DNA of 64,000 nt, from contig DDYE01000009.1 in the NCBI GenBank assembly GCA_002347855.1, forward strand, positions 90,265 through 154,264, read 5' to 3'. Each line of letters starts with the position of its first letter. Positions within the stretch are counted from its first letter, which is position 1. The notes beneath the pieces were generated by a model. The model had not been told where the DNA came from. It searched no databases and worked only from the letters and a program-made list of their open reading frames with translations. The DNA comes from Fidelibacterota bacterium UBA2242 (lineage in GTDB: Bacteria > Fidelibacterota > UBA2242). This document shows, piece after piece, positions 8,942-57,028 of this stretch. The translations under genes and the position numbers were made by a program.

Positions 8942-8960
8942 AAAATTGTGCCTTAAACAG

Positions 8961-16253: not shown

Positions 16254-16832
16254 TTAACGATATAGCTTATGTTCTGTAATATATTGTGCTATTGCCTGTG
16301 GCACATAGCCTTCCAGTGATTGTCCTTGGCGAACCCTATTCCGAACCAAACTGGACGAAATGGGAGACATTTGATTTTTTAAAACTATAACCTGCTGCAG
16401 GAATTTAGGCTCTACTTTATCTAAATCGCATTCCGGTCGCTTTGCAATCACGACCTGCACAGAATTTAGAATGGCTTCTGGTTCGCGCCAGTTGGCGAAG
16501 TCCAGCAGACTGTCTGCGCCAATCAGGAGATAGTACTCGGCTTGGGGCTCTTGCGCTTTTAGAAAACGGATAGTGTCAATAGTATAGGAGATGCCTTCAC
16601 GCTCAATTTCGACCGTGTTGATACGAAAATGGGGATGTCCCGCGAGAGCAAGGCGCAGCATATTCAAGCGGTCTGCGGCAGTAGCATAAGTACGGTGACC
16701 TTTTTGAGGGGCGATATAGGCGGGAATGAAAAGCACTTCGTCTAATTGCAGCTCTTTCAGAAAAGATGTCGCGATGGTCAGATGTCCGTTATGCGGCGGA
16801 TCGAAGCTGCCACCGAATAAGCCGATTTTCAT
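16254..16832 (-). CDS. nadD: Nicotinate-nucleotide adenylyltransferase
   Basis: The N-terminus is GLFGGSFDPPHNGHL. Its start overlaps the bamD stop as ATGA. Confidence 0.9.
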   Translation of the reverse strand: MKIGLFGGSFDPPHNGHLTIATSFLKELQLDEVLFIPAYIAPQKGHRTYATAADRLNMLRLALAGHPHFRINTVEIEREGISYTIDTIRFLKAQEPQAEYYLLIGADSLLDFANWREPEAILNSVQVVIAKRPECDLDKVEPKFLQQVIVLKNQMSPISSSLVRNRVRQGQSLEGYVPQAIAQYITEHKLYR

Positions 16833-17632
16833 GGATTATTTTTCTTCAACTCTTTTTCGAGTTGCTTTTTTTCGCGATTGTAGGAAAGTTGCAAATACAC
16901 CATTTGTTCGGCAGGGATACGCTCTTTGTACTTGCTGTTGAGAATCTGGCGCACCTGTTCGTATTCATCGAAGCGCCGCAAGCGGATAAGGCAATAGGCT
17001 TTTTCCAGATAGGCTGGCAGGACCCAATCGGTGTCGTAATAGAGTTCAAGAACTTTATCGAAGTAAATGATGGCTGACTCCCACTCGCGCAGTTTGCGGT
17101 AGAGTCGTCCGCTTTCGAAAAGTTTTCGTCCTAAACGATTGCGGATTTCGATAATCATTTTTTCAGCAGCAGGACGATATTTGCTATTGGAATAAGTTTC
17201 AACAAAATCCTGAAAACTCTGCAAAGCCTTCAAGGTATATTCCTGGTCAAGTTGATATTGAGGCGCATTTTTAAATTGCGAGAGCGCGATTTTGTAACTG
17301 GCATCTTCGACTAGCGAGCTATACGGATAGCGCTCCGTCAATTTCTGATACTCGGCAATGGCTAAAAGATACTCTTTGCGATTGAAATAACATTCACCAA
17401 TATAAAATTGGGCATCATCGGCTAAATCACTGCCTGGATTATTGAGCACGACCAGAGTGAAATATTCAATGGCTTTGTCCCATTTTTTCTTATTGAAAGC
17501 CTCGGTTCCCTTTTGATAGGTTTTATTGAAATCAGTCACAATTTTCGGCTGATTGCTCGAACAGCTCGTCATTATCAATATCAGATAAATTAGACTCGTC
17601 AGGCTAATTTTTTCCAGAAGACTATTTTTCAT
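16829..17632 (-). CDS. bamD: Outer membrane protein assembly factor BamD-like TPR lipoprotein
   Basis: It has a lipoprotein signal (LILIMTSCSS) and YfiO/BamD-like TPRs (DDAQFYIGECYFNRKEY..AIAEYQKL). Confidence 0.8.
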   Translation of the reverse strand: MKNSLLEKISLTSLIYLILIMTSCSSNQPKIVTDFNKTYQKGTEAFNKKKWDKAIEYFTLVVLNNPGSDLADDAQFYIGECYFNRKEYLLAIAEYQKLTERYPYSSLVEDASYKIALSQFKNAPQYQLDQEYTLKALQSFQDFVETYSNSKYRPAAEKMIIEIRNRLGRKLFESGRLYRKLREWESAIIYFDKVLELYYDTDWVLPAYLEKAYCLIRLRRFDEYEQVRQILNSKYKERIPAEQMVYLQLSYNREKKQLEKELKKNNP

Positions 17633-18595: not shown

Positions 18596-21500
18596 TTATA
18601 GTCCAAATAAAATAGTTAAATAAGTCTGCCATTCTTTGCCGTAGCGATGAGCTTTTCCCTGGCGGTCTGTCAGATCGAACTGATCGAGACCATAGACAAA
18701 ATCCCAGCTGATAGCGGTTGGGTAAGCATAGAAGGAAAAGCCACTCAGGCGGAGCTGCACGCCGGCATCGCGTTTAAAATCACCTACTATCCGGCGGGTT
18801 ATTTTTAATGGATTTGTACTGATATCGCTCAACTGCACTTTTGGATACCCTCTAACTCCATTCCAGGCGTTTCCGGCTTCAATATAAAAACCAAGGAAGG
18901 CATTTTGCAAATTAAAAGATAACAAGGGAAAAGATTTTTCTCGAAAAAGCGGCACCCGCCAGGTATATTGTCCTATCAAGAGGTTGCGCCCTTCGATGCT
19001 ATAATAGGGATAGCCTTTTAATCCATCCAGCCCACCGGCAAAGAAGTAGAAAAAGGAATCAACATCCGGTTTGGAAATAAAGCCCCATCGCCAATGCAAA
19101 TTGCCCGTCAAATTCTTTATCAAAGGATATTTGTGGTACCAATCGCCAGTTTGTTCAATACGCCAGTAGTAGTTTTTACGAAAGTCCACATTGAGTGTGC
19201 TGTAGGCTTGGTTGGTACTAAAGCCGCGAATGAATTGGTCATAATTGCGGGCAACGAGCGTATTGACGACAATGCCGTTGTCGGGATTGGTTTCGGCATT
19301 GATACTTGGCAGAGTGGTATTGTGCTGCCATAGCATCTTAAAATTCAGTCCCCGATAGTAGTCGTAAGAAAAGCCATTCTGGTAAATAGCCTGAGAGGGA
19401 ATGCGTTCGTTGGTTGAGGTCCTATATTTAGCGAAAGAAACATCAAAACGAAGGCGATTGACGCCCGACACTGGCAGCGCCATTCCCAAATCAGCTTCGC
19501 TCAGATAATAGGTGTAATCCAGTTCAGCAGGGTAACTATTAATCGTTTCTTTTATATTCTTGATATGCCGACTAAGGTTATAAAGTTCGATGTAGAAAGT
19601 CGGATACCACTGGCGATATTCGAGAATAGTGAACAAGTCGCGGTCAAAGTATTGATTGACGGCGGCACCGCCGAAAATATTAAAGCGGTTGAGAATTTCT
19701 GAAGAATAAAAGTAGAACCCCGGTTTGGCTTTTTTATAATCCCACATTAGGCGCGGCAGGAAAAAAAGACGGGCAAACTGCTCCTTATAAGGTTCAGCCT
19801 GTGTCACAGTGACTTCGGGCGCAGGTAGGAGCCCGGGATTAGTCGCAGGTTGGCGATTGTAAGTGGCATTCTGTAAGTCGAGAGATTGTGGGTTTTTTAT
19901 CAAGCTGATTTTGAAAGCAGTGTCGTCAAAAAGCACATAGGCTAATTCGCCCGCGCTATTGACAGCCGGCATAAAAGCCCCGCCGAGGACATTGGTCACT
20001 AATTCTTTTTCGCCAGAAATCAGGTTCAGGCGATAGAGATTAAAAATGCCAGTCTCATCGGAAGAATAGTAGAGCCACTTGCCGTCGGGACTGAAGAAGG
20101 GATGGCGCGTATCGCAATCACTCTCATTCCGATAGATGATTGAGTCGCAACTCAGGTCATAAAGCGCTAAATTGCGTCCGTGACTGACTAAGTAATCGAA
20201 GGCAATTAAGCGTCCATCAGGTGACCAGCTGGCAGTAAAGACTTGGGTACCGTCGGTAAAATGAGTGAGATTGCGCTTGCTTTTATTTTCTAAGTTATAC
20301 ATCACCAGATTGGAAGTGCCATCGCGTCCCGTGATGTAAACTAATTCCTTTCCATTGGGTGCCAGGGCAGGGTTATATGCTCTGGCTTCTTTTGTCAAAC
20401 GTTCTTCTTTTCGGCGCCGCAAATCGTAGCGATAGAGGTCATAAAAAATTGAACCACGGCGATTAGGACGACTGGGACGGGAGTAGTAAATATAACGACC
20501 ATCGGGAGAAAGCGAAAGGCTGGAATTGACCCGCGCCACGAGGCGTTTAGTTTTGCCGCTGCGCCGGTCAAAACGAAAAAGCGCCGTCTGTGAAAAGTAG
20601 TCACGCCCTTCGTTGGATACATAATAAAGGCAGCTATCACCACTCCAGGTAGGATAAAACTGAGTGCTGCCTTTTTGCAGTAACACTTCGCCAGCGAAAA
20701 CGTGAGGCTTTATAAAACGAGTGAGCTCGGCATAATGCTTATCAAGATACTGCCCCCACTCTTGATAAAGCAGGTCGCCCGGAGAAGCCGTGGCGCCTTT
20801 CATTGCCGAGCTCACTGAATATTGGTTTGGTTTTGCAAGCTCTGCCGCCAGTTTTGAAAGAACATCAGTACCAAATCTGTTACTAATATAATATACAAAA
20901 GAAAAACCTAAATTGTAAACACTTTCGTTACCAATTCCTCTTTTTCCGAATGATCCCATCTCGGAAAAGGTCAATAATTTTTTATGCAAAACCCGATCAC
21001 GCAACAACATATCGCGGTGCGAGTCCCAGTAATCGTTGGGATTGCCAGGATACATATACTGCGCCATGCCTTCTGCCAACCACATCGGAATAACTAAACC
21101 CGGAACCGGGTAGGAACAAATAATTCTCGGATAACCGTAAATTACATCCTGTCGCTTTTCTTTTTCGTAATCAATCATTTGCAGGTAAAAGCCGGGGATT
21201 GCGCGCCCAAACTTCATGGCTTTCTGCAAGGAAACGATATGGGTAAACTCGTGGGTGATGACATCTCTTAGCCAGCTGTGACTGCCGCGCATCGGGAAAT
21301 CAAGAGGCGTTGCCCAGATTTCGATTTTGTTGTCATAGTAGTAAGCCGCTCCGTTAGAGATGTCGTCCGTATCTTTAATAATGAGCGCGGTTTTTTCGCG
21401 CGGCGCAAAATTATAAAAATTGGTAACCGGTCCATAAATAGCTTCGGCAATGCGGGCGCTTTCATAAGCCGTCCATTCCGTGCCTTCATGATAATGCACT

Positions 21501-21634
21501 TTGAAATGCGCAGTTTCAAAGGTCAACCATTTCAGCTCGGGATGATTGAATTCACTAAATTGGGCAAAAGCCCCCTGAAAGATACCTAACAGCAACCAGC
21601 AGAATAAAAAAAATTTATGCGGCGTAATAAACAT
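18596..21634 (-). CDS. Secreted zinc-metallopeptidase-like (HEFTH) protein fused to TolB/PD40-like beta-propeller repeats
   Basis: The HExxH motif is at nt 21239–21253, with a downstream Glu-rich MA-clan-like region. There are multiple SPDG(R/K)..Y PD40-like repeats. The start is taken at the Met that gives a signal peptide (MFITPHKFFLFCWLLLGIFQGAFA), whose ATG overlaps the upstream stop as TAATG. The 6-frame ORF runs to 21739. Confidence 0.6.
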   Translation of the reverse strand: MFITPHKFFLFCWLLLGIFQGAFAQFSEFNHPELKWLTFETAHFKVHYHEGTEWTAYESARIAEAIYGPVTNFYNFAPREKTALIIKDTDDISNGAAYYYDNKIEIWATPLDFPMRGSHSWLRDVITHEFTHIVSLQKAMKFGRAIPGFYLQMIDYEKEKRQDVIYGYPRIICSYPVPGLVIPMWLAEGMAQYMYPGNPNDYWDSHRDMLLRDRVLHKKLLTFSEMGSFGKRGIGNESVYNLGFSFVYYISNRFGTDVLSKLAAELAKPNQYSVSSAMKGATASPGDLLYQEWGQYLDKHYAELTRFIKPHVFAGEVLLQKGSTQFYPTWSGDSCLYYVSNEGRDYFSQTALFRFDRRSGKTKRLVARVNSSLSLSPDGRYIYYSRPSRPNRRGSIFYDLYRYDLRRRKEERLTKEARAYNPALAPNGKELVYITGRDGTSNLVMYNLENKSKRNLTHFTDGTQVFTASWSPDGRLIAFDYLVSHGRNLALYDLSCDSIIYRNESDCDTRHPFFSPDGKWLYYSSDETGIFNLYRLNLISGEKELVTNVLGGAFMPAVNSAGELAYVLFDDTAFKISLIKNPQSLDLQNATYNRQPATNPGLLPAPEVTVTQAEPYKEQFARLFFLPRLMWDYKKAKPGFYFYSSEILNRFNIFGGAAVNQYFDRDLFTILEYRQWYPTFYIELYNLSRHIKNIKETINSYPAELDYTYYLSEADLGMALPVSGVNRLRFDVSFAKYRTSTNERIPSQAIYQNGFSYDYYRGLNFKMLWQHNTTLPSINAETNPDNGIVVNTLVARNYDQFIRGFSTNQAYSTLNVDFRKNYYWRIEQTGDWYHKYPLIKNLTGNLHWRWGFISKPDVDSFFYFFAGGLDGLKGYPYYSIEGRNLLIGQYTWRVPLFREKSFPLLSFNLQNAFLGFYIEAGNAWNGVRGYPKVQLSDISTNPLKITRRIVGDFKRDAGVQLRLSGFSFYAYPTAISWDFVYGLDQFDLTDRQGKAHRYGKEWQTYLTILFGL

Positions 21635-24600
21635 TATTTGATGACGATAATTTTGATGATTTTTATGTCGGTCTGCGCTCCAACACTGGCTTTGACCACA
21701 GCGAAATAGACCCCGCTCTTTATCTCTCCGACATACCATTCTTTTTCGTTGAAATCACCACTGCGGGGATGATTGTCTTCGAAAGAAGTGATTAAGTCGC
21801 CGGCTAAGTCGTAAATATCGATGTTGATTTTGCACGAAGAATTAACAAAGTAACGAATAAAAGTACGATTATCGCGAGCCGGATTGGGCCAGTTAAAAGT
21901 CAATTCATGATTGAGCAAGCCCTTGGCATTTTTACCCGAGGTGATTGGTAAAACAGGATAAAAGTAGCGCCGGCTGGCATTGCCTCCCTGACAAACCCAG
22001 TCCGTGCTTGTCAGTGCCGCCGCCGCTAAGAGCGCGCCACCAATCTGGCGATAATCAGACTGCCCGATTGGCTGAGTGGCGCCCAGCAAAAGCTGTCCAC
22101 CGGCTGAATTGATTAAAATTCCCGAACCAGCACGCGGCTGGACAAAATTCAGGGGGAAATTAGCAATTAGTCTGCCCTGCTTGTTGAAAGCAACAACGCC
22201 CCTTTGGGTTGTCAGCAAAACGTCCTTGATGCCATCACCGTCAAGGTCGCTTAAACAAAGGTTGCTACTGAATTCGTCGCCTTTTAAAATGTTGGGCAAG
22301 CTAATCGGGAAATTGTATTTGAACTTTAAATCCTGGTTAAAAGCGTAAACCGCATTGGCGTCGTAGGCGATAATTTCGTTTTTACCATCACCGTCAATAT
22401 CCGCACAGGCTAAGTCACCGCTTAGAACGATATTCCGGGTGATGGTTTTTTGACTTTCATCAATGTCAAAAATTATTTCTAAATGTCCATTATAGTAATG
22501 AATTATATCAGGAAGCTCATTGCCGTCAATAAATGCCAGTAAATGTTCACCCTGACCGAGATTTGCCGATTGCCCCAGGGAAGTAATGCCGAAGGGCTGC
22601 GGCTGAATTCTAAGCAGCTCATTGGCGTCGGTGATGCCGTATAAAAAGGTAGAATCACCTAAAAAACGTGCGATAGGAGCAGACAAATACACCGATTGGA
22701 CGGAGGAGGATTGCGGCAAGTAATAGCCCAATTCGTATTGCTTGACATCCGTTGCCAGAACACAATATATGATGCCCTTGCCAATGGGAAGTGGTTGACC
22801 ATACAGGTTTTTTTTCTGCCAATTGGTCTGTGCTAAAACCTGCCATTTGCCGTTGGAATCAATCTGCCAGGTGGTAATAGTGAGGTCATCGCCCGGTTGC
22901 GGTTGGAAGCCGGTGATTTGAGAGCCATTAATGGCATAAGTCGTGTTGGCGACGGCGGTGGAAAGCAAATACCCTTCGTCATTGAATATATAAGCGCTAT
23001 CAGCGCAAACTAAAAAAGCGTCGGGAATCCTATTCATATTTAGGGAAAGTGGTAAAAGATGCGTGATAGTAGTCGGGAAATTGAGAGGAAAATTTTCCGG
23101 TGTAGTTGCTCGCCTGATCTGAAAATACATGACCATACCTGCCGGACCAATACTGTCAATGCTGACCCCGGTGTAAAGATAGGCGTTGGTAGTTGTAGCG
23201 GGATTAGTGAAAGGAGTGAAGCCCACATGTTGCGCGGCGTCGCGCGGATAATCAGGATTCAAGTGGAAAAAGCCTTCATTACCGGCAAACCACGGGTCGA
23301 AATACCAACCAATGTTGATATTTGCTCCTAAGATACCGGTGTCGTAACCTAAATCCTGTGCGCCATCACCTTCTTCGAGATCAACACCGCGGTAGTTGCG
23401 GTTGATATTGACTTGGTTCTTGGCGAGATTGCTTTGGATAATTGATTCGTCAATGTGCCAGATGAGGAGACCGGAACCGGGCAATCCGTAATCATATTTG
23501 GGAACACTAAGCATAACCCCTGTTTGGGGAGAAAAGACTGCTCGCAGGGAGTCACGCAGAAGCGGAAAAAGGGATGGCCAGGTTTGACTGGGGCTTTGTA
23601 GATAAAGCCGATATTGAATGCTATCTAAACTAACACCAGGTCGCACATGCGCACAGCGATTTTCGATTAAAAAGTATTCAGAAGCATTTAAAGTCACTTT
23701 CCAAATAGTAGTATCGGAACCGGATTCGATTTCAGGCAGGTGAATTGTAGCGCTATTCGGTGACTCGATTGGTTCTTCCCATCCCATGAAAAAGCGTTCC
23801 CAGGCAGATGGTACCGCGGGCACCAAGCCATTGAGGTTGGCTGAGCCCTGGTCCATGAGCCCAAATTTCCCAATACCGGTTGTGCCAGTCTGGGTATCGT
23901 AAAGAGCTGGTAATCCCAAATAAAACCCGAAAATAAAGGCGAAGGTACCATTTAACCCAATCTGGTATTCGCAAGGTGTTGCTGCTGAACCAAAAACTTC
24001 CTGCCAATTGTCAAAAAGCAGATGATTTTGCGTTTCCGGCAAAATTAGACCACGGTCGAGATGATAATTACCTTTTTCGACCGCAATACCGAAAAAATCA
24101 GGATCATCCGGAGCCAGCAGGTTTTTCAAGTCAGTGCGGTTAATGAAAACCGAGGGAATATCATAAGGCGTTGGATCGAGAAAAAGGTCGAAGTCCTGCC
24201 CGACCCCCGCGTGAAAAACGACCACTACATCATATTGACGGAAATCTACTTCAGAATCAGCAGCTTGGATAGCATCATAAAATAGCTCCGCTAAGCGTAA
24301 ATCAATCGAGTCTTTCTGTAAAAAAGGATGATAATAAGCCATCCGGTGCGGCACGGTATAGGTCGAATCGTCTTGTATGGGAAAAACCTGCGAATTAACT
24401 GTGTCAATGGTTACTTTGCCATGGGAAACTTTGGAATAGTAATTGTTTAACGCGCGCAAATGGTCAATGAAATAGGCGCGATTATGGGGCGGTGGATCAA
24501 TTACAAAATCAGAACAGGGTGTATTCGTGTCATTTAGAAATTGACCATTGCCAGTTGTTCCAGGGTCTGCATCGCTCGGAAAGCTGACTCGTAATGCGCA

Positions 24601-24738
24601 GATTTTCAAATTTGTAGTAGTAGTGACACTCGCACGGCTCTTTTTATGATAAAAGTTGGGTTTTATAGATTCGGCGCCCTGCGTAAGAGTCGCCAGAAAA
24701 GTCAGAACACTAATGAAGATTAAGGAGGATTTTGGCAT
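21634..24738 (-). CDS. T9SS C-terminal sorting domain cargo protein with FG-GAP/VCBS-like repeats and N-terminal peptidase-like domain
   Basis: The C-terminal ~88 aa (NWPNPARDNRTFIRYF..IDIYDLAGDLITSF..SGVYFAVVKA..KIIKIIVIK) match the Por secretion tail pattern. FG-GAP-like motifs are present (DIDGDGKNEII, DLDGDGIKDVLL). The start is taken at ATG 24738, which gives the signal peptide MPKSSLIFISVLTFLATLTQGA; the ORF extends to TTG 24777. Confidence 0.7.
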   Translation of the reverse strand: MPKSSLIFISVLTFLATLTQGAESIKPNFYHKKSRASVTTTTNLKICALRVSFPSDADPGTTGNGQFLNDTNTPCSDFVIDPPPHNRAYFIDHLRALNNYYSKVSHGKVTIDTVNSQVFPIQDDSTYTVPHRMAYYHPFLQKDSIDLRLAELFYDAIQAADSEVDFRQYDVVVVFHAGVGQDFDLFLDPTPYDIPSVFINRTDLKNLLAPDDPDFFGIAVEKGNYHLDRGLILPETQNHLLFDNWQEVFGSAATPCEYQIGLNGTFAFIFGFYLGLPALYDTQTGTTGIGKFGLMDQGSANLNGLVPAVPSAWERFFMGWEEPIESPNSATIHLPEIESGSDTTIWKVTLNASEYFLIENRCAHVRPGVSLDSIQYRLYLQSPSQTWPSLFPLLRDSLRAVFSPQTGVMLSVPKYDYGLPGSGLLIWHIDESIIQSNLAKNQVNINRNYRGVDLEEGDGAQDLGYDTGILGANINIGWYFDPWFAGNEGFFHLNPDYPRDAAQHVGFTPFTNPATTTNAYLYTGVSIDSIGPAGMVMYFQIRRATTPENFPLNFPTTITHLLPLSLNMNRIPDAFLVCADSAYIFNDEGYLLSTAVANTTYAINGSQITGFQPQPGDDLTITTWQIDSNGKWQVLAQTNWQKKNLYGQPLPIGKGIIYCVLATDVKQYELGYYLPQSSSVQSVYLSAPIARFLGDSTFLYGITDANELLRIQPQPFGITSLGQSANLGQGEHLLAFIDGNELPDIIHYYNGHLEIIFDIDESQKTITRNIVLSGDLACADIDGDGKNEIIAYDANAVYAFNQDLKFKYNFPISLPNILKGDEFSSNLCLSDLDGDGIKDVLLTTQRGVVAFNKQGRLIANFPLNFVQPRAGSGILINSAGGQLLLGATQPIGQSDYRQIGGALLAAAALTSTDWVCQGGNASRRYFYPVLPITSGKNAKGLLNHELTFNWPNPARDNRTFIRYFVNSSCKINIDIYDLAGDLITSFEDNHPRSGDFNEKEWYVGEIKSGVYFAVVKASVGAQTDIKIIKIIVIK

Positions 24739-24790
24739 CAGATCTTTTTTGATTTGAGGTATCGTTAGAGTGGTCAAACTCAGAGCATTA

Positions 24791-26014
24791 TCAGAATTTT
24801 ATATTAAGGGAAAACAACATAGTATTCTGCCGCGGGTGACCGGCTTCGCCTGCAGTGTAGCCGAAATCGAAGCCCAAGCCTGCCCAGCGTAAACCGGCTC
24901 CAAAAGTCGGCACCGGAAGATTATTTTTCATGACAATCTTCCCGATTTTGTCATAGATACATCCCACCCGAATGGCAAACAGGTCGGAATACCAGTATTC
25001 GATGCCAAAATTGTGTACTAATTTCTCGAATTCTCTTTTCAGAGAGCCGTCGTTGGTATTGCCGTCCTCATCGTTAGCACCTATGCCATCCGAAGCGGAA
25101 TCGTAGGTCAATAGCCAATCATCAATCCACGAAGTGAAGATGCCTTTGTACCAGTCATCAGAATAAGCCGTTTCGCGTTGTCCTTTTTTATTGTAATCGC
25201 CGCCGGCTATGCGATGACCATCGGCATCATAGCCGCCCACTTTGCCATCGCCGTCAATATCACGGTCAGGGTAAGAAGCCACGAGGAGTTTATTGACGTC
25301 GTAGGCAATGGTCACGCGGTTATATTCGCCGCCTAAGGTATAGCTGAGACCAAACTTAAGATTAGTTGGCATGGGGTCAGCCTGCGAAACATCGATAAAG
25401 GCGATTTTCGGTCCGATATTAGCAATCGTGGCGCCCATAGTCAAATTTCTTAACAGGAATTGCTTCTTTAGATAGCCGACATCAAAGCAAAAGTTGGTCG
25501 AAGTTCCCTTCCCTTTTTCATGACCGGCGCCGCGGTCGGTAAGATGTTGGTGAACCATTTTGACATTGACGCCTAAGGATGAATTGCGGGTCAGAGCTGT
25601 CCCATAGGATGCTGTTACCGCCATCATATAAGAGCTAAAATCTCCTAAATAATTGCCGCGCTCATCCATACGAGCTTGTTCTCCCAGGTTCATCAAAATG
25701 ATATTGCCACCCAAAGTCCCGACGTCTTTTAAAAATTGCCGATAGCTCACGAATTCGTAGTACATATCGGAAGCCAGATTTGGTAACCAGTTGGTATGCG
25801 TCAAACCGGCTTCGCGTCCCCGCAGGAAACCCAAGCCAGCTGGATTATAGTAGGTAGCGTAGGCGTCGTCGGTAAAACCGGCACCGGCTTCGCCCATACC
25901 GCAGTACCGTGCCCCGGGATTGATTAAAAGCCAGACCGCACCAGCCTCACTCTGGGAGTAAGCCATCAAAGTCATACTCAATATTAAAAGCGATATGCTC
26001 AAAAATCTATGCAT
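24791..26014 (-). CDS. PorV/PorQ/PorP-superfamily (FadL-like) outer-membrane beta-barrel
   Basis: It has a signal peptide, GARYCGMGEAGAG and YYNPAGLG motifs like T9SS shuttle proteins, and a C-terminal Phe (NIKF). A strong SD (AGGAGG) precedes the ATG. Confidence 0.55.
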   Translation of the reverse strand: MHRFLSISLLILSMTLMAYSQSEAGAVWLLINPGARYCGMGEAGAGFTDDAYATYYNPAGLGFLRGREAGLTHTNWLPNLASDMYYEFVSYRQFLKDVGTLGGNIILMNLGEQARMDERGNYLGDFSSYMMAVTASYGTALTRNSSLGVNVKMVHQHLTDRGAGHEKGKGTSTNFCFDVGYLKKQFLLRNLTMGATIANIGPKIAFIDVSQADPMPTNLKFGLSYTLGGEYNRVTIAYDVNKLLVASYPDRDIDGDGKVGGYDADGHRIAGGDYNKKGQRETAYSDDWYKGIFTSWIDDWLLTYDSASDGIGANDEDGNTNDGSLKREFEKLVHNFGIEYWYSDLFAIRVGCIYDKIGKIVMKNNLPVPTFGAGLRWAGLGFDFGYTAGEAGHPRQNTMLFSLNIKF

Positions 26015-28174: not shown

Positions 28175-28615
28175 CTATTCCTCCAGAGCCTGAATTTTCT
28201 TAATCCGTCTGAGATGACGTTCTTCACCTGAAAAAGAGGTAGTGAGCCATAATTGGAGATATTCTTTGGCTTTTTCTGGTAAAATAAAATCGGCACCGAA
28301 ACAGAGCACATTTGAATCATTATGCTGACGACTTAAAGTGACGACCTGGGGATTGTAGGCAATTGCTGCCCGGACGCCATGTATTTTATTGGCCGATATG
28401 CACATTCCGATGCCAGTGCGGCAAATCAGGACTCCATAATCGGCAGTTCGGGACTGAATAGCAGTACCTACAGCTTGGGCGAAGTCTGGATAATCAACCG
28501 GGTTATCTGAATCGGTGCCTGCATCCAGGACGGTATGCCCGAGCTGCTGGGCAAATGCGCTAAGCTGCTTTTTCAGGTTCACACCACCGTGATCAGCACC
28601 AAAAATGATACGCAT
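28175..28615 (-). CDS. rpiB: Ribose-5-phosphate isomerase B
   Basis: The N-terminus is MRIIFGADHGG, it is RpiB/LacAB sized, and the stop abuts the glyA start. Confidence 0.9.
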   Translation of the reverse strand: MRIIFGADHGGVNLKKQLSAFAQQLGHTVLDAGTDSDNPVDYPDFAQAVGTAIQSRTADYGVLICRTGIGMCISANKIHGVRAAIAYNPQVVTLSRQHNDSNVLCFGADFILPEKAKEYLQLWLTTSFSGEERHLRRIKKIQALEE

Positions 28616-29892
28616 TAATCCTTCTTTGCTTCGGTAGTTATCCAGTTATAGCAGGCTTTATTGGGACGAAAACTTGTGCGACGATTGCCCAGGGCGTCGA
28701 AATTATTGAAAAACCATTCTTCGGTGGTCGGGATGAGGTAGTCTTTCAAATGGTCGATACGATTTTTTACTGAACTATCGCCTAATTCAAGGGCTTTCTT
28801 ATAGTCGTCATAAGCTAATTTATAAACTAATTTGTCTTCGAAAGTCATTTTCTCCGAGCCGATACAATAGTCAGCGGCAGTATAATAGAGATCAGCCCGA
28901 ATTTTATAGGCTTGAGCGCCACCAATGCTAACGGCTTTTTCTGCCCAGGAATAAGCAGCCGGGAAATTGGCGAGTCTGATGTAATTGGTGCAGATTTTCT
29001 GGATGACATCTAAATCACGTGGTGCCAGGTTTTTAGCAATGAATTCCAGGGCATTGATTGCCTCCGGAATGCTGTTCTTATTCTGGTAAAGATCAGCAAG
29101 ATTTTGCCAGGCTTCGAGGTTACGCGAATCGATTTGCGTAACTTTTTGATAAACCTGGATAGCGCGTTCAAAGTCGCGTGCTTGCTTCAAGGCAGTAGCA
29201 TATTCTAAGCCGGAGCGCACGGAAGGCGATTTTTCCCAGTTATCCCGAATAATCTGAATCGGGTCCTTGCCTAATTTCTGATAGGCTAAAATCAGGTCGT
29301 TTTTCGCCTGCTCATCATTCGGACTGATTTTTAAAATTTCGTTGGAGATGTAGACTACATCATTCCAACGCTGATTGGAAAAATACAATTTAGCCAGAGT
29401 GCGATAAAGCTCTATATCATTGGGATTGAGCTCAATCATTTTTTCATATTCGCGAATTTCCAGGTCAATTTTGTTCTGCAAGTGGTATATGTAAGCGATG
29501 TATTTTTTTAAGTACAGATCATTAGGAAGATATTTTTCTCCCTTTAAATAGACAAATAAGGCGCTATCTAAATAAACAGGGTTCTCGGATGCCAACTGTT
29601 GATAGGCTCTACCCCAATAGATGAAAATATCCTGGGCATATTCCTCTTCGCAACCATGATCTATCATTTTTCGATAATTTTCGATGGCGCTCTTCCAGTT
29701 CTGGTTCTGATAATAGCTGTAAGCAAAACTAAGGTAGAGATCGCACTTGGTGTGATCCATAGGTGGTTTAGGGGCAGCTGGAGCGGTTTTTTCGACTGGT
29801 TCCGGCGATGGCGGAACGCAACCGACTAAACCTAAACCCGTTACTAATAAGAGGATAATTAAAAAGTTAAAAACAATCCGACTTTTCATCAA
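28615..29892 (-). CDS. TPR-repeat lipoprotein
   Basis: It has a lipobox (LVGC) and multiple TPR-like repeats. Its stop overlaps the rpiB start. Confidence 0.6.
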   Translation of the reverse strand: MMKSRIVFNFLIILLLVTGLGLVGCVPPSPEPVEKTAPAAPKPPMDHTKCDLYLSFAYSYYQNQNWKSAIENYRKMIDHGCEEEYAQDIFIYWGRAYQQLASENPVYLDSALFVYLKGEKYLPNDLYLKKYIAYIYHLQNKIDLEIREYEKMIELNPNDIELYRTLAKLYFSNQRWNDVVYISNEILKISPNDEQAKNDLILAYQKLGKDPIQIIRDNWEKSPSVRSGLEYATALKQARDFERAIQVYQKVTQIDSRNLEAWQNLADLYQNKNSIPEAINALEFIAKNLAPRDLDVIQKICTNYIRLANFPAAYSWAEKAVSIGGAQAYKIRADLYYTAADYCIGSEKMTFEDKLVYKLAYDDYKKALELGDSSVKNRIDHLKDYLIPTTEEWFFNNFDALGNRRTSFRPNKACYNWITTEAKKD

Positions 29893-29905: not shown

Positions 29906-31114
29906 TTAGCGTCGTTTATATTTCAAAAACCATAGTTCACCTGTCGTTAACCCGCACGACAAGGTAAAGAATTTTTCATTACTTAAAAAGCCCTTGCGCA
30001 ACCCATAAGTTAAGGCAAAATCAATGCGATTCAAATCATTAAAAATTGGCAACCCGATTCCCGCCGTCAAACCCCTTTCGCTTATCTGAGTACCCGCCCA
30101 ATAGACTGGTTCTGTACGATAATAAAGACCGAAGCGATAGGCAAAGCGGCTGATTTCAGGATGTTTTTCGTCAATAACGGGAGTTAATTCAATGCCGACT
30201 CCAATATACTGAGCATTTTGCCATTTAACAGGAGTGAAGAGGTAGAAATCTTGGAAAACTGAGTGATCGGTGTAGGTATAATGCCACTCGAGATTCAACC
30301 GCAAGAAATTAGAGAACTTATTGGTCAGAGCCAGGCGCAGAGTGCCGGGATAGGCGAGTGGCCGGGATGGAGCGGTGGTATCGGGACCATAAGAATAGTC
30401 AATGCTTTTTTGGTAAGAAAATTTTAGATTTTTATCAAAAGTGAATGCCATAGTAAGATGGGTTCGCGGTACATTCCACAGGCTGCCGACTTCTAATGAA
30501 GTGCCCTTTACAACCGAGTTCATCTGCCAGTAGCTATAGACCTTGTTGGTGCCACTTAAGGTCGTATTGTAATTGACGACATAATTGCCCAAAAGGAAGC
30601 GCGCTTTTGCTCCCAAGTTTAGATAAGGTGATAAGCGAAAGCCTCCGCCCAGAAAAAATTCCGAAATGCCACCTGTTAGGAGCAAATCAGATTGACTGCT
30701 GATTTTAATGCCATCAAAAAGCAAGGTATCTATAAAAGTGCGATTAGCGTCCATCCGCGTAACGGGATTTAATCCCAAGCCAATGCCGATCTTTTTACCA
30801 ATCGGGAACTTGAAGGCAAAACCAACGAAACGCCCGAAGTTAGTAGTGTAATCGAGGTTGGGAACGGCAATGTTAGAGAAGTACATTTGCCCCTGCAGCG
30901 AGGTGCTCACAAAATTAGTCCAGAGAGCAGGATTGACGCTATTGAGACTGATGGAATCAGGAAGAGCAGCACCGGTCAAACCCAGACCAAGCGAACGCAC
31001 TGGCTGAACCGGAGACGCAATACCGAAGCCGTACATCGAATAATGCGAAAACTGACCTAATGCCGGTAAAGCAATTAAGCCAATGGCGGTGACTATGGCA
31101 AATATTCGTTTCAT
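29906..31114 (-). CDS. Outer-membrane beta-barrel, second PorV/FadL-like paralog
   Basis: It has a signal peptide (ALPALGQ) and an N-terminal VRSLGLGLTGAAL...NPALW motif like the 24791–26014 protein, with an alternating β-strand pattern. Confidence 0.45.
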   Translation of the reverse strand: MKRIFAIVTAIGLIALPALGQFSHYSMYGFGIASPVQPVRSLGLGLTGAALPDSISLNSVNPALWTNFVSTSLQGQMYFSNIAVPNLDYTTNFGRFVGFAFKFPIGKKIGIGLGLNPVTRMDANRTFIDTLLFDGIKISSQSDLLLTGGISEFFLGGGFRLSPYLNLGAKARFLLGNYVVNYNTTLSGTNKVYSYWQMNSVVKGTSLEVGSLWNVPRTHLTMAFTFDKNLKFSYQKSIDYSYGPDTTAPSRPLAYPGTLRLALTNKFSNFLRLNLEWHYTYTDHSVFQDFYLFTPVKWQNAQYIGVGIELTPVIDEKHPEISRFAYRFGLYYRTEPVYWAGTQISERGLTAGIGLPIFNDLNRIDFALTYGLRKGFLSNEKFFTLSCGLTTGELWFLKYKRR

Positions 31115-32352
31115 CGTTCTTTCATTAAAAATAGTTTGAGATAAGGCTGCCTGGCGGAATCTGCTGTAGTATAAAGGCTATAGAGAATGGGATTGTAAGA
31201 TGATGGCGCTAACCAGATTACAAAACCGAAATTTTTAGAATAACCACTGGTAATATTCTGAATTGTCCTCGGCAAATTCATTTTTAATATTTGACTACCT
31301 GCTGTAAGAGTGTGGCTCGCCTCATAGGTGCTTGGGGTAGTAAAATCAGAGGCGTTCCAGGCGGTCGAATCCAACATGTTCAGGTAAACCGTAATACTTT
31401 TATTGTAAGACATAGATAAAGAAGAGTCAATATAGAGATACAAATTAGCATCGCCGACGACCCAGTTTTTATCAATATTTAACTCATCGAGATTAACTTT
31501 CAGGAAAGCGTAGCCTGTTAAACCTGCCGAAAGTACCAGTCGCTGATTGTTAATTTTGGCTGAGTTGTATTTCAAGATTGCGACATCGTTGGTTGCCGCG
31601 ATAGTCCGCGTGAGAGTGTCGCCCTGGTAAATGTACTGAACAATGAGAGTGGGAGCGTAAACGGTACTGCGGGTATAGATACAACCGATGGCGGTTTCGG
31701 TCTGATTAGCAGTCTGGAGAATCAACCCGTAATTAGTTTTGCTCGTATCCAGCCAGTCATTAATCATTGCTTTGGCAAAATTAGTGATGTCGAGCTGGAC
31801 GGTATCTGATATTTGGAAATCGAATTCTGTAAAAGGTGTTACCCGGTATGAGGTTAAATCGAAATTCTTATCGGAAACACTATCTTCTTCCCAATTGGGT
31901 GCTGCATTAGATTGGAGCAGTCCAATTTTTATAGTTGGATTTAGCACCTGGTTGGTGTCGGTTGCTAAACTGGTGGCAGTATAAAGATTCAAGGTACAAC
32001 TCAGGAGGGTGTCGAGAGTGTCAGGCAGTAGACTAAGATTGGAAAAGCGCAATAAAGAATAAGCGGTCACCCACTCGTTTTGTCCAACATAAAGATAGAA
32101 GTAGCTGCCTAATTTGCCGGGGACAATTAAATTGCGGGTCTGAATCAGACTTGCCGGTACGACTAGAGTATCAAAATATGCCAGAGGCTGGTCGTACGGA
32201 AGTGTCGGTAATTTTTCCTCACAACCGCTGCTAATTATCAGCATTAGTCCCACCACGATAAATATTAAAAGGTGGTGTGGTGGGTTAGAAGTTGCCTGCG
32301 CGAGTTGGTTAAAGCGAGCTTTACATGCGTTCCATGAGTGCGATAATTTCAT
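31111..32352 (-). CDS. Lipoprotein of unknown function (DUF4270-like)
   Basis: The lipobox is ISSGC. Its size and its position next to a short glycogen-synthase-like gene match the conserved Bacteroidota pair (from memory). It overlaps the downstream gene by 4 nt. Confidence 0.4.
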   Translation of the reverse strand: MKLSHSWNACKARFNQLAQATSNPPHHLLIFIVVGLMLIISSGCEEKLPTLPYDQPLAYFDTLVVPASLIQTRNLIVPGKLGSYFYLYVGQNEWVTAYSLLRFSNLSLLPDTLDTLLSCTLNLYTATSLATDTNQVLNPTIKIGLLQSNAAPNWEEDSVSDKNFDLTSYRVTPFTEFDFQISDTVQLDITNFAKAMINDWLDTSKTNYGLILQTANQTETAIGCIYTRSTVYAPTLIVQYIYQGDTLTRTIAATNDVAILKYNSAKINNQRLVLSAGLTGYAFLKVNLDELNIDKNWVVGDANLYLYIDSSLSMSYNKSITVYLNMLDSTAWNASDFTTPSTYEASHTLTAGSQILKMNLPRTIQNITSGYSKNFGFVIWLAPSSYNPILYSLYTTADSARQPYLKLFLMKER

Positions 32353-33163
32353 CTGCTAATTTCTGCCAATCTTCTGGTTCATTACCGGTTAAGTTATAAA
32401 TCGAATATTTTTTCTTGTCTCGTTTTAAAATTTCAGTGAAGTGAGCATCTTGCTGAAAGGCATCCCATATATTTTCTTTATGATTAATAAATAGAGTGTG
32501 ATGGCAGAAAGGTAGCGCTGCCGCCAGGCAATCAATCGTCTCATTAGTAGAAGCAGGGTTCAAATTGTTAATTCCAATAGCTTCATATTCTGAGCGACGG
32601 TACAAAGCATGCTCTGATTTGGAATGCACAATCTGTAGGATTTTGACTCCATCTAAATAATCAGGATTGAGTTGCCCGGAGTTAATCAGGAGAGGAATCA
32701 GACTCATCTGCCAGTCGTTACAGATAATGACTTCTGGTTTCCAGCGTAAATAATTGAGGGTGACCAATGCGGCGGTAGCAAAATATCCGAAGCGAGAAGC
32801 ATTATTTTGCTCAGCATTGGAAGGCTCATTGTAGTAGAGGTTATTATCGGGCAAGTTGAAATAGAGATTATGCTCTAAGAAATAGACCTGCACCTTAGTA
32901 TTGGGGATAAAGGCGGATTTAACTGCGGCTTTCACCGGTTGATTTTTGTACAACAAATCCATTTCGCGCAGGCGGATGACTTCGCGCAAAATATAGCGCC
33001 GCTCGCTGATGAAATTGTACTTGGGCATCATCAAGCGGAAGTCATATTTACGCTCATTAAAGATGATGGAAATTTCTTTGGAGAAGGTCGCAAGAGAATA
33101 AGTCTCAGCAAAGGGTACGATTTCAGAGGTGAGAAAATAGATTCTTTTTATCATAGTAGTCAT
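32321..33163 (-). CDS. Truncated glycogen/starch synthase-like protein (GT5 N-domain only, degenerate KTGGL)
   Basis: Its N-terminus IYFLTSEIVPFAETYSLATF corresponds to GlgA's FV.SE..PFAKTGGLADV, with KTGGL changed to ETYSL. It is about 280 aa and lacks the C-terminal GT-B half. Its ATG overlaps the upstream TGA as ATGA. Confidence 0.55.
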   Translation of the reverse strand: MTTMIKRIYFLTSEIVPFAETYSLATFSKEISIIFNERKYDFRLMMPKYNFISERRYILREVIRLREMDLLYKNQPVKAAVKSAFIPNTKVQVYFLEHNLYFNLPDNNLYYNEPSNAEQNNASRFGYFATAALVTLNYLRWKPEVIICNDWQMSLIPLLINSGQLNPDYLDGVKILQIVHSKSEHALYRRSEYEAIGINNLNPASTNETIDCLAAALPFCHHTLFINHKENIWDAFQQDAHFTEILKRDKKKYSIYNLTGNEPEDWQKLADEIIALMERM

Positions 33164-34041
33164 TTCATTAGTTGTTTAGCATTTTCCACGAATTCACTCT
33201 GCGGATAGGTTTCAATTAAGGTTTTAAATTCAGCGCGGGCACGTTCCTGGTTGCCGAGTTGACGATAACATAGACCCAGTTTATACTGAGCATCATCACC
33301 TTTATCTGTATTTGGAAAAGAGCGTACTTTTTCAAATTCAATGATGGCGCGTTGATATTGTTTCATGGAGTAGTAACATTCTCCCATCCAATATTGGGCA
33401 TTGTCGGCTAATTCATTGCTACGATCTTCAGCGATGAGTCGGCGAAACTGCTCGGCAGCTTCTTCGTGATGACCATTTTGGTGGAGGGCAAGGGCATTGA
33501 GGTAGCGTTCGCGAAATGAAGCCGGAAGGTTGGTAGGTGTACGGTTGTCTTTGAGGCTCATGCTATTGAATTCTGAGAGGCTATTGCTAAGGGAGACGAT
33601 GCGATTCTCGAGAATGACCAGCTGGGATAGGATTTCAAAATTGATGCTGTCGGCGTAAGTGGCGCGCTTTTCGGCGATAGCCATGCGGTTCTGGAGTCTA
33701 TTGATTTCGTTATTGAGAGATTTCAAGCCGATTTCCAGATTGCCGATGGTCTTTTGCAAATTATCGACTTGTTTTTTTAATTCGATCTGGATCGAGTCAG
33801 AAGCTTTGCTGCTTGCCAGTTGGCGAGCAGAAGCATTAGCAAGGTTGATGACGGCATTGAGCTTATTTTTCAGGTTGGCGATTTCCTTATCCAATTGGTC
33901 GAATTTCTGGGCAATCTCTGCATTCGATAGTTTGGTATCAGCGGGTGAGTTAGCATAGCCAGGCAAAGCATTGGCAATTATTAAACTCAGCCCGATGAGT
34001 GCATAACTAATTAATTTGATGTGTCTCATAATATTATTCAT
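33160..34041 (-). CDS. CpoB/YbgF-like periplasmic protein (coiled coil + C-terminal TPR)
   Basis: It has a signal peptide, a long heptad-rich middle (LQKTIGNLEIGLKSLNNEINRLQNRM) and C-terminal TPRs (YWMGECYYSMKQYQRAIIEFEKV). Confidence 0.55.
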   Translation of the reverse strand: MNNIMRHIKLISYALIGLSLIIANALPGYANSPADTKLSNAEIAQKFDQLDKEIANLKNKLNAVINLANASARQLASSKASDSIQIELKKQVDNLQKTIGNLEIGLKSLNNEINRLQNRMAIAEKRATYADSINFEILSQLVILENRIVSLSNSLSEFNSMSLKDNRTPTNLPASFRERYLNALALHQNGHHEEAAEQFRRLIAEDRSNELADNAQYWMGECYYSMKQYQRAIIEFEKVRSFPNTDKGDDAQYKLGLCYRQLGNQERARAEFKTLIETYPQSEFVENAKQLMK

Positions 34042-44187: not shown

Positions 44188-47100
44188 TTGAAAAAAGTAT
44201 TAAAAATAGCACTTTATACTCTGGTCATCGGCATCTTTCTGCTGAGCGTTTTAGGTTTTGTAATTCTTAAAACCACCTGGTGGCAAACCACATTTTTAGC
44301 GTATGTCAATCGTCAATTAGGACAACGTTATAATTTGGCTCTCCAGGTCAAAGAATTTAGAGGCAACCTTTTTTTTCGCTTGCGCTTTTCAGATTGGCGT
44401 CTCCTGACAGACAAGCAAACTCCATTATTGCAGGGTGAGGAGCTGAACCTGACTTACAATCTCAAAGCACTACTAAAGCAAAAGCCAACTATTCAAGCTA
44501 TCCAGGGTAATGGGATTTCTCTGACTTATCCTAATAGTCTTGATTCCCTGCGAACTCATCTGGCGCTTTACAAAGACACCACCCGCGCGCTTCAATTAAC
44601 TGTGAAGAAAATTAAACTCACAGATATAACTGTTCTCGCTTCTGATTCTATAAATGAGGCGCTCGTCAAGCAAGCCTATATGCAGGGAACGCTATCCATT
44701 GTAGGTCAAGAACTGACCGCTGAATTTGATTCGCTGGGATTAGCGTTGCCCAGAATCCAGGAAAAGCTGCTCGTACGGCATCTCAATCTCGTTCTAAGAC
44801 AAGATACGCTCTGGGTTAAGGATTGTCAGTTAAAAAACCGCGCCGCGGGAGTAAGAATCGCCGGCCAGGTACTCCTTCGGCAGCCTATCAAAAGTCATTT
44901 AGCTTTTCAGGTTGATAATTTACTCGTCAGAGAACGACTGGCTGCTTACCAAAAGATATTTGCCCTGAACGATTTCTTGAATTTGCGCGGTGAGGCTGAC
45001 ATTTCATCAAATAGTGTTGACCTGAGCGCGCAATTCGACGGCAAATTCCGCAATCGTTCCATTACCGCCGGCAGAATCAAGGGCAGCTTTATCAATTCTC
45101 ATTTCCAGATTAAAAACTTTGCTTGCAAGGTCGATTCAGAAGAGGTACAAGGAATCCTCGAAGGAGACTTTAACCAAAAACTTGAAGCTGTGCTGAATTT
45201 CAAGGGATTGAATGCTTATGATTGGGGGGTGACAGAGCAGACGACCAATTTAACCGGCTCTTTATTTTTATCGAGTTTGGGGCAATTGAATCGTCCTGAA
45301 CGAATAACAGCACAGGTGGATTTGAATGATGCCACCATCTCGACTTTTAACTTCAATCGCATCCACGGGACTATTGTTTATGAAAAAGGGTACCTGACGA
45401 TAACTGATACATTGCATTTTCAATTGGGGGAGACGGAATTGATGCTGGATGGGTTGGTGGATTTAAATGATAATACTCTCGATACCCGCGCTTATTTTAA
45501 AAATATCGATGCCAATTTAGCAGCGAATTGGCTGAAGCTTGATACGCTTTTAGGTAAGGTGGATGGTTTTATTGAAGCGACTGGCAGCTTGAGTGCTCCC
45601 GATTTGCGCGGCTGGATTAAAGGCAAGGCATTCGGTGTCCCCAACTTAGTTTTTAGTGAAGGTATTGCTCGTTTCGGGTTAGTCAATCTTCAGCAACATA
45701 GGTTTGGTGACATTTTCATCGAAGCCACGAATGCTCGTATACCGTTGATTGCGGAGGAAATACCTCTCACCTCTCTGATTGTCCGCTTTGAAGGTGACAC
45801 TACCATTGTCCAATCCCTCAAAATTGTTAGCGATAACTTAGATATTGAAGCCCAAGGTAGAGTCGTAAACTTTACTGAGGTTAACCTGCAGAGCATCAAA
45901 ATTCGGCGGGGCGCCAATCTCCTGAGCAGTATTGACCCCATTCATTTTTCTTTGGACAAAGATACTCTGCAACTGAATCAGGTCAGGTTTGCTCTTAATC
46001 AGGGTCGCTTGACTTTATCGGCAAAATTCCTGAAACGCATACCGCAGGATATTAAAGTCGAATTTGCCGACCTTTCGCTGGAGCCGTTGAATCAATTTAT
46101 TAAGGGGACGCCGGATATTTCCGGCAAGCTACAGGGAGTAATCGAATACCATAACGGCATTCGCCGACCATATTTTAAAGGTAATTTAGTCGTTGATAAC
46201 GCTAGATTCTTAGGGCAACGTTTTAAAAGGGTAAATTTTAATGGCAAATTGAGCGAGCACCGCCTGGAAATCGAGCAAGTGACAATCCAGGATATGCAGA
46301 AAGGCGTACTCAATGGTCAGGGCTTTGTGGGCTGCAATTTTAATTGGAATGCCAAGCGGCCTTTAATCGTGGCGCAAGACAGCGTCAATTTGACTTTAAA
46401 TCTCGACGATTTTGATTTAAAAGTGTTTCAGAAGTTCTTAAGACAGCAGCGCGCAATTGATGGCAAACTGTCCGGCAATTTGATTGTCTATAATTTTTTA
46501 GGGGCACCGCGTCTGAGCTACGATTTTGAACTCGCTAAACCCATCTTTGACAAGTTAAAAGGTGAAACCCTGAAAATTAAGGGAATCTACCAGGACAATA
46601 AACTAACTTTTTCGGATATTCAATTACTCGACGAGGGAGGAGTAACTCGTGGGCGTGGCTATTTTGGTACTATCATCTCACTATTTCCTCTTCGCTTTGA
46701 AATCGGTCAGGATGCCCCTATCAGTATGAATTTTACTATGCACACTACCGCCCTAAATTTTCTAAGTGCCTATATTAAAGGTTTGGAGAGCGCTACCGGT
46801 AATTTCGATTTGGCATTGAGTATCTCTGGCACCCCTCGCCAACCTATTCGCTCAGGTAATTTAATAGCCAAGGATGCTACTCTCAATATTAGTACTCTCG
46901 AAAATCCTATTACTGGGGTCGCTGGTAGCGCCGTGCTGAGAAATAACATTCTGGAAATTGTTACACTCACCGGCTTTATGAAAAAGCCCCTGCCACCAGC
47001 CCGCTTTGAACGCCTTAAGGACAAAATAAAAGCATATACCTGGGATATTATCTTTCCGCCTAAGGTTGCTCCGGAACAACCCAATCTGGTGGTTACTGGC

Positions 47101-57027: not shown

Positions 57028-57028
57028 T

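Follow-up and report, generated by a model that had tools for sequence, protein, structure and literature searches.

We examined a 64,000-nucleotide (nt) stretch of contig DDYE01000009.1 (forward-strand positions 90,265 to 154,264) from Fidelibacterota bacterium UBA2242 (assembly GCA_002347855.1), referred to here as the window, in which a run of overlapping minus-strand genes includes one resembling the N-terminal part of the glycogen synthase GlgA. Fidelibacterota, Neomarinimicrobiota and Marinimicrobia are synonyms, and the last name is used below. The original prediction, made from the DNA letters, grouped four of these genes as one unit with an envelope role: a CpoB-like protein, a glycosyltransferase family 5 (GT5) protein reduced to its N-terminal domain, a DUF4270-like lipoprotein and a PorV/FadL-like outer-membrane barrel. 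All four open reading frames (ORFs) are present where it placed them. The list below adds a fifth gene, together with the co-directional cluster upstream, which was recognized from its ORFs, Pfam labels and an NCBIfam match of MreB.

28615-29892, minus strand: tetratricopeptide repeat (TPR) lipoprotein, 425 amino acids (lipobox LVGC), the fifth gene of the module
29906-31114, minus strand: outer-membrane barrel, predicted BamG, ORF of 402 amino acids
31111-32352, minus strand: putative BamH-family lipoprotein, ORF of 413 amino acids
32321-33163, minus strand: GlgA-derived GT5 protein, ORF of 280 amino acids
33160-34041, minus strand: TPR protein with the architecture of CpoB, ORF of 293 amino acids
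34127-39458, minus strand: mreB-mreC-mreD-mrdA (PBP2)-rodA cluster, upstream of the module

The junctions between the genes can be read in the sequence as they were originally described. The TPR and GT5 genes share an ATGA at 33163-33160, the bamG start codon and the bamH stop codon share a 4-nt ATGA at 31114-31111, and the GT5 and lipoprotein genes overlap by 32 nt (32321-32352). Most GT5 orthologs begin where the window protein has Met4 ('MIKRIYFLT'), so the GT5 start may instead lie at 33154, which would leave a 5-nt gap and no ATGA overlap. Gene callers are split between 413 and 377 amino acids for the lipoprotein. The shorter form leaves seven residues ahead of the lipobox Cys. Among canonical start codons, only the ATG at 32352 places a signal peptide before the lipobox Cys44; the 32-nt overlap is therefore probably real. 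The view of these genes as one conserved unit is borne out by comparison with other genomes, since about 30 divergent loci show the same order, far beyond chance, and this conserved unit has five members, with the TPR lipoprotein gene at 28615-29892 as the addition.

Two studies published in 2025 described BamG and BamH, subunits of the β-barrel-assembly machinery (BAM): BamG is a FadL-fold, 14-stranded barrel that sits on the back of BamA and anchors BamH, a surface lipoprotein that forms an extracellular canopy (PMC12611786; PMC12578637). Structures cover the Flavobacterium johnsoniae pair Fjoh_1412/Fjoh_0823 (PDB 9n2d), the Bacteroides thetaiotaomicron pair BT_4367/BT_4306 and the Porphyromonas gingivalis proteins (PDB 9hiv/9hj3). 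When the window barrel was used to search PDB sequences, its best match was chain 9n2d_B, 'Bam G' (E=8.4e-17, residues 5-400 against 7-407), followed by 9hiv_F (E=1.9e-12). Scans of Pfam and NCBIfam returned a single family, NF053685 (BamG family beta-barrel-assembly machinery protein), which aligned over almost its entire model (E=2e-48, positions 6-397 of 397). At the sequence level 'QFSHYSMYGFG', the tail behind the barrel's signal peptide, is matched to 'GTASPYSFYGIG' in BamG of F. johnsoniae, and the conserved N-terminal pattern S-x-Y-S-x-Y-G-x-G is aligned between the barrel and 9n2d_B. With the FadL fold and this tail in common with BamG of F. johnsoniae, B. thetaiotaomicron and P. gingivalis, the product of 29906-31114 is assigned as a predicted BamG, the FadL-fold outer-membrane subunit of a BAM complex of the type found in the Fibrobacteres-Chlorobi-Bacteroidetes (FCB) group.

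The barrel had originally been called PorV/FadL-like, and it could be imagined as a shuttle or transporter of that type, unrelated to BAM, with the lipoprotein as its cargo or partner. BamG does belong to the FadL superfamily, of which PorV is a homologue (PMC12578637), and the window encodes cargo of a type IX secretion system (T9SS). We nevertheless consider this scarcely credible, because BamG is the sole family match, no PorV or FadL family matched the barrel in Pfam or NCBIfam at E<=1, and the best PDB match is a full-length BamG chain including the BamG-specific N-terminal tail. An identity as PorV itself was rejected on the BamG-only family match and on the presence of a real PorV gene elsewhere in the window, 4 kb downstream of the barrel gene:

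24791-26014, minus strand: genuine PorV (PorV_fam, 239.7 bits against a cut-off of 90)

For the lipoprotein encoded at 31111-32352 we compared two alignments, one of the gene following the GT5 gene in 24 loci outside the Bacteroidota (A5) and one of the gene in the same position in 18 Bacteroidota loci (A6). With hhalign the two profiles matched end to end over 378 columns (98.9% probability, E=1.5e-17), and a jackhmmer search seeded with the window lipoprotein recruited the Bacteroidota genes 3' of short GT5 genes. In all five of the latter that were tested Pfam DUF4270 was found (E from 1e-41 to 1e-114), and three tested genes matched NCBIfam BamH_bt or BamH_fj. DUF4270, taken as uncharacterized in the original prediction, is now the family of BamH (PMC12611786; PMC12578637); Bt4306, since named BamH, was reported as DUF4270 in the preprint of the second study (bioRxiv 10.1101/2025.01.31.636011). 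The lipobox of the window protein reads ...ISSG-C44-E-E-K-L-P. Cys44 is invariant in 24 of 24 homologues (A5), all of which carry acidic residues after it, although a few have just one among the first six positions; this agrees with the surface-lipoprotein rule applied to BamH-K (PMC12578637). The NCBIfam DNRLRE domain, a β-sandwich, was matched in two stretches (62.7 bits against a cut-off of 34), the PDB sequence search gave a chance match to VP7 only, and homologue searches found three relatives by k-mers and one redundant SAR406 clade by profile. In Marinimicrobia-type loci the gene invariably has the GT5 gene on one side and bamG on the other. The product is thus classified as a putative, highly divergent surface lipoprotein of the BamH/DUF4270 family. 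It shares this family and an acidic surface-export N-terminus with published BamH, from which it differs in length (about 370 mature residues against 450-600) and in being invisible to Pfam DUF4270.

The product of 32321-33163 does align with the GT5 N-terminal domain (Pfam Glyco_transf_5, PF08323; E=8e-32, model positions 1-212 of 239) and has no signal peptide. Its AlphaFold2 (AF2) model scores a predicted local distance difference test (pLDDT) of 90.2 and a predicted template modelling score (pTM) of 0.91. Foldseek searches with this model returned starch and glycogen synthases at the top, with a query-normalized TM-score (TMq) of 0.74 and about half of each target covered; the neighbours include starch synthase IV, the glycogen synthases of E. 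coli, Agrobacterium and Pyrococcus, and entries 6gne, 3cop and 2qzs. On hhalign comparison with full-length neighbours the protein is colinear with residues 1-281 of a 495-residue GlgA. An internal deletion joining the N-terminal domain to the C-terminal helix of GlgA was considered and set aside, because this simple colinearity was recovered and the alternative alignment was insignificant. Compared with GlgA of the FCB type (PRK14098 family), the window protein keeps the homologous N-terminal Rossmann domain and the motifs ER(R/K)xxL(R/H)EVIRL and QVYF. It lacks residues ~282-495, the donor-binding half, with all of the C-terminal motifs (RxxxQKG, FEPCGL and GGLxDTV have no counterpart), and tblastn in all frames of the window found nothing of that half (E>2). 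Within the part that is retained, the position of the GlgA KTGGL motif reads SEIVPFAETYSLATF, such that KTGGL has become ETYSL, and HNxxYQG has become HSKSEHA. Degeneration of KTGGL extends to 27 of 27 Marinimicrobia and 18 of 18 Bacteroidota short forms examined. The original description of a catalytically degenerate protein consisting of the N-terminal half only is therefore upheld: with the donor-binding half, KTGGL and HNxxYQG gone, it cannot be a glycogen synthase.

Glycosyltransferases of the GT-B fold can be divided between two polypeptides, as when Alg14 pairs with Alg13. By the same arrangement the short GT5 protein, whose N-terminal half is intact in fold (pLDDT 90), might pair with a separately encoded donor-binding half, for example in the synthesis of a glycan destined for envelope proteins; O-glycosylation of BamG and BamH has been described in Bacteroidota (PMC12611786). 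Such a split enzyme is highly improbable here, given that the donor- and acceptor-contacting motifs of the N-terminal half are degenerate, that no gene for a GT1-type C-terminal half occurs in the conserved neighbourhood of about 90 loci, and that the 64-kb window holds no remnant of one.

The loss of catalytic motifs has not been accompanied by decay of the gene. Pairs of GT5 orthologs with unsaturated synonymous divergence (dS) give ratios of nonsynonymous to synonymous substitution rates (dN/dS) of 0.07-0.12 over the whole length, and 42 columns are invariant among Marinimicrobia orthologs of 35-96% identity. This purifying selection, together with the invariant columns, indicates that the GT5 gene is no decaying relic. 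The same figures argue against retention of the ORF mainly as a cis element for bamH, by way of a promoter, a leader or translational coupling. That idea draws on the tight packing or overlap of the two genes and on experiments in F. johnsoniae, where the 100 bp upstream of fjoh_0824 served as one of a pair of inducible promoters, bamH being driven by the weaker, in a system for depleting BAM subunits including bamH (Fjoh_0823) (PMC12611786). We judge it very unlikely, since it does not account for the protein-level constraint, for a confident fold and a length of 252-283 amino acids kept across two phyla, for the detection of the product by membrane proteomics in B. thetaiotaomicron (BT_4307; PMC12578637 supplementary file 3), or for the short GT5 gene of Candidatus Cardinium, which is retained with no bamH downstream.

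We then examined the gene order across phyla. An exhaustive profile search with the GT5 protein identified 4047 relatives in two length classes, of ~270-285 and ~490 amino acids, and GTDB representative genomes, scanned with the reduced alignment A4, yielded 80 loci, which were annotated with hidden Markov models (HMMs) made from the window proteins. The Marinimicrobia-type order is TPR (CpoB-like), short GT5, bamH-like, bamG-like and TPR lipoprotein, and is carried by about 27 GTDB loci as well as by L001-L007 and L093-L095. The module usually lies 3' of mreBCD-mrdA-rodA and 5' of rpiB-glyA. The mre-mrdA-rodA order was also found upstream in L005-L007, L091-L093 and L095; in L094 the module is not beside rodA. 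Adjacent bamG and bamH genes are known from Ignavibacterium, Salinibacter, Fibrobacter, Gemmatimonas and Caldithrix (accessions in PMC12611786 Supplementary Table 1), and the window resembles these genomes in that respect. It differs from the published cases in that the pair belongs to a set of five genes, the others encoding a TPR protein, a GlgA-derived protein and a TPR lipoprotein, beside mreBCD-mrdA-rodA.

In four Ignavibacteriota loci (L033, L034, L036 and L037) a full-length GlgA of 494-495 amino acids, with every catalytic motif intact, is followed by bamH-like and bamG genes. The locus L035 ('Bacteroidetes MAG.504') encodes a full-length GT5 protein in which KTGGL is kept and the C-terminal motifs are degenerate, followed by bamH-like, bamG, TPR lipoprotein and rpiB genes; a 190-amino-acid haloacid dehalogenase (HAD)-type, GmhB-like gene (8461-9033) separates the half-degenerate glgA from the bamH-like gene. 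KSB1-like loci have rodA, a TPR gene and a full-length GT5 gene, and then an exopolysaccharide (EPS)-export cluster where bamH and bamG would be. Among these the GT5 protein is intact in L023 and L032 and has lost all motifs in P0142, P0156 and P0145. The motif-dead forms, of 492-493 amino acids, are encoded at L091 6001-7479, L092 6001-7482 and L090 388-1866, respectively, after rodA, TPR and GalT-like genes and before an EPS cluster with STAS, Wza and Wzc genes.

In the Bacteroidota, about 50 loci show a divergent panC, a short GT5 gene (252-283 amino acids) and a lipoprotein gene that proved to be DUF4270/BamH wherever tested. The spacing between the short GT5 gene and bamH is often 0-30 nt, or the two overlap; bamG is encoded apart from the pair, which in Flavobacteriia is also flanked by glmS. 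The original prediction had named a conserved pair of short glgA and DUF4270 genes in this phylum, and this is correct: DUF4270 was found in 5 of 5 tested, with BT_4307/BT_4306 as an example. The short Bacteroidota 'glycogen/starch synthases' (BT_4307, Fjoh_0824 and many RefSeq entries) form an annotated but uncharacterized family that shares with the window protein the truncation point, the loss of KTGGL and the place directly 5' of bamH. They are only 20-26% identical to it, and have lost the D of the HDW motif (G). A literature search found no functional study of the short GlgA (BT4307, Fjoh_0824 or the PG183x locus tags), and neither 2025 paper on BamG and BamH mentions glycogen or GlgA (PMC12611786; PMC12578637).

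The short GT5 gene descends from a full-length GlgA lineage of the FCB type, of which Ignavibacteriota retain an intact copy at the same position. In a neighbour-joining (NJ) tree of the GT5 N-terminal domain the Bacteroidota short forms were monophyletic in 200/200 bootstraps and the Marinimicrobia short forms in 195/200. The two appeared as sisters in 81/200; the short forms may be sisters that go back to a single truncation, or may have been derived separately from motif-dead full-length forms. At least two losses of catalysis have taken place with the gene retained, one through truncation and another in full-length forms.

The ancestral arrangement also raises the question of whether the place of the short gene before bamH is simply a frozen glgA-bamH-bamG order, its product still serving α-glucan metabolism as a regulator or as a non-catalytic binder of glucan or primer. 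In GT5 enzymes the acceptor site of GlgA lies in the N-terminal domain, and the Foldseek matches of the short protein are acceptor-bound structures. The intact glgA in the Ignavibacteriota slot means that the adjacency is older than the loss of catalysis, and the Cardinium gene has no bamH beside it. We find this explanation unlikely, however, because the spacing of 0-30 nt or overlap has outlived catalysis in two phyla, a durability that is rare for neutral synteny. Residues lining the active site also differ between the short clades (the D of HDW has become G in Bacteroidota, and the HN motif is variable), and no glycogen genes were found in the window, where the only sugar-nucleotide enzyme is a nucleotidyltransferase (NTP-transferase) of the RmlA-long type and not GlgC.

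The two TPR proteins that flank the module are less easily named. The 293-amino-acid protein has a Sec-type signal and no lipobox, a heptad-rich region (38-170) and a TPR domain (175-293), as judged from reading of the sequence and weak coiled-coil matches. It scores below the cut-offs of YbgF (TIGR02795, 77.5 against 90.1 bits), PRK10803 (45 against 383) and BamD (TIGR03302, 55.7 against 81.4 bits). Its best PDB sequence match is CpoB (6g5s, 8e-10), followed by BamD (3qky). Of the original CpoB-like label, the shared architecture stands: signal peptide, N-terminal coiled coil and C-terminal TPR_6-type domain are those of CpoB (YbgF). Membership of the family does not, as the score is below the YbgF cut-off, the TPR domain is about as close to BamD, and the gene follows rodA and not tol-pal. 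Both the window and more than 20 loci have it 3' of rodA, L094 being an exception, and it lies directly 5' of the GT5 gene in Marinimicrobia and KSB1-like loci. No tol-pal cluster is present in the window, and in the loci compared the gene is never beside one. The 425-amino-acid lipoprotein gave generic TPR matches only (Pfam, NCBIfam and PDB). About 25 Marinimicrobia-type loci, as well as L035, have its gene 3' of bamG; its position is conserved to the same degree as that of bamG. Both TPR proteins are lineage-conserved flanking members of the module.

Taken together, these data identify the locus, at a probability that we put at roughly 80%, as the Marinimicrobia version of an FCB BAM accessory module, preceded by an inactive GlgA-derived gene. 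By homology to the published structures, BamG would pack on the back of BamA and hold the lipid-anchored N-terminus of BamH, which would in turn roof the extracellular canopy above the site of outer-membrane protein folding. The original suggestion of an envelope role and a pseudoenzyme, as opposed to glycogen metabolism, was right in direction.

Several observations weigh against this assignment. The barrel's NF053685 score of 165.4 bits is below the equivalog cut-off of 250, which marks the window BamG as strongly divergent from published BamG; the syntenic barrel of the Ignavibacteriota locus L034 exceeds that cut-off (284 bits). For the lipoprotein, the earlier DUF4270-like label stands as a family link between profiles and not as a direct match: no Pfam DUF4270 (PF14092), BamH_bt or BamH_fj match was obtained at E<=1, nor was a direct PF14092 or BamH match obtained for the other non-Bacteroidota orthologs tested. 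Its AF2 model, built from 21 admissible sequences of two clades, is unusable (pLDDT 43.6). The BamH call consequently draws on the comparison of profiles, on synteny and on features of the N-terminus. Promoter and terminator counts match shuffled expectation and so lend no support to any particular extent of the operon. Marinimicrobia/Fidelibacterota are absent from the published distribution table of BamG and BamH (PMC12611786). The link of the GlgA-derived protein to BAM is purely syntenic and, being cytoplasmic, this protein would be no stable partner of a surface lipoprotein. Finally, Candidatus Cardinium, an endosymbiont with a reduced genome, keeps a short GT5 protein of 268 amino acids whose next gene is uvrD and not bamH, in two loci:

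L088, 4107-4913: short GT5 gene, flanked by a divergent MsbA-like ABC transporter gene and uvrD
L089, 4140-4946: short GT5 gene, with the same flanking genes

No DUF4270 gene is adjacent to the short GT5 gene in either locus, and endosymbiotic Bacteroidota are reported to have no BamG (PMC12578637), so the function of the GlgA-derived protein does not appear to depend strictly on BamG and BamH. Genes for a lipid A acyltransferase, a phosphatidylserine decarboxylase and a CDP-diglyceride synthase occur near the Cardinium short GT5 genes.

What the GlgA-derived protein does within a BAM accessory module is a separate matter. It would be a cytoplasmic, non-catalytic protein with a second function borne by the N-terminal domain and inherited from its GlgA lineage, and this function would most likely be connected with envelope growth or the biogenesis of BAM, not with glucan synthesis. 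More broadly, and tentatively, the N-terminal domain of FCB GlgA might carry a second, non-catalytic role in outer-membrane or envelope biogenesis, with the short form as a dedicated pseudoenzyme co-expressed with bamH; we regard this as possible and would not lean on it. Glucosyltransferases that moonlight as growth regulators acting on FtsZ are known, namely UgtP of B. subtilis and OpgH of E. coli. The analogy, which is no more than that, lies in a sugar-nucleotide transferase lineage set among envelope-growth genes and having a function apart from catalysis. Unlike the GlgA-derived protein, UgtP and OpgH are still active enzymes, and here nothing points to a cytoskeletal target.

Other genes were identified in the window:

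16829-17632, minus strand: genuine BamD (TIGR03302, 151.3 bits against a cut-off of 81.4), apart from the module, a partner in trans
18596-26014, minus strand: PorV followed by two ORFs of 1047 amino acids
44188-49952, plus strand: TamB-like protein (1307 amino acids) and 614-amino-acid Omp85 protein, with a 4-nt overlap
49968-52589, 3' of the preceding pair: ClpB
52685-53206, plus strand: TPR protein of 173 amino acids resembling BamD and YbgF, below both cut-offs
56080-59335, plus strand: GldA-like ABC ATPase and GldG-like proteins (gliding-associated ABC transporter components)

The bamD gene overlaps nadD (16254-16832), and BamD, BamG, BamH and the pair at 44188-49952 are all encoded within 35 kb of the window. 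For the 614-amino-acid Omp85 protein the match to the BamA model begins at model position 148 (291 bits against a cut-off of 297). This start suggests a partner of the TamA/TamL type with fewer POTRA domains, and the pair is probably a translocation and assembly module (TAM). Of the two 1047-amino-acid ORFs, one encodes an inactivated, M6-like metalloprotease that depends on the T9SS and carries a Por_Secre_tail, and the other a TolB-like β-propeller protein; the two share 106 nt (21634-21739), which makes a mis-called start for one of them probable. The 173-amino-acid protein is the third of the TPR_6 type in the window. Together with PorV and the T9SS cargo, the GldA- and GldG-like proteins indicate that the envelope equipment of this Marinimicrobia genome resembles that of Bacteroidota.

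BamG and BamH have an essential or important part in assembling the outer-membrane proteins of Bacteroidota, in a field that is two papers old. The Marinimicrobia five-gene unit would widen their known range and add very divergent sequences, and it brings forward the CpoB-like TPR protein, the TPR lipoprotein and the GlgA-derived pseudoenzyme as candidate new partners. The conserved linkage of a GlgA-derived pseudoenzyme to bamH across phyla is apparently unreported, its members being annotated everywhere as glycogen or starch synthase. Since the short form has neither the donor-binding half nor the catalytic motifs, that annotation is very probably wrong. This affects BT_4307, the 'starch synthase' adjoining BT_4306, which has been described as a 'potential glycogen synthase' and cited for glycogen storage (PMC10797578); as its family lacks KTGGL and the C-terminal half, that inference is unsafe. 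If the FCB GlgA lineage does carry a second function, the repeated loss of catalysis, in truncated forms, in the motif-dead KSB1-like forms and in the half-degenerate protein of L035, would be its footprint, and the pseudoenzyme would be a factor of the FCB BAM pathway that has gone unrecognized and may be essential, or else it would couple carbon status, elongasome and BAM.

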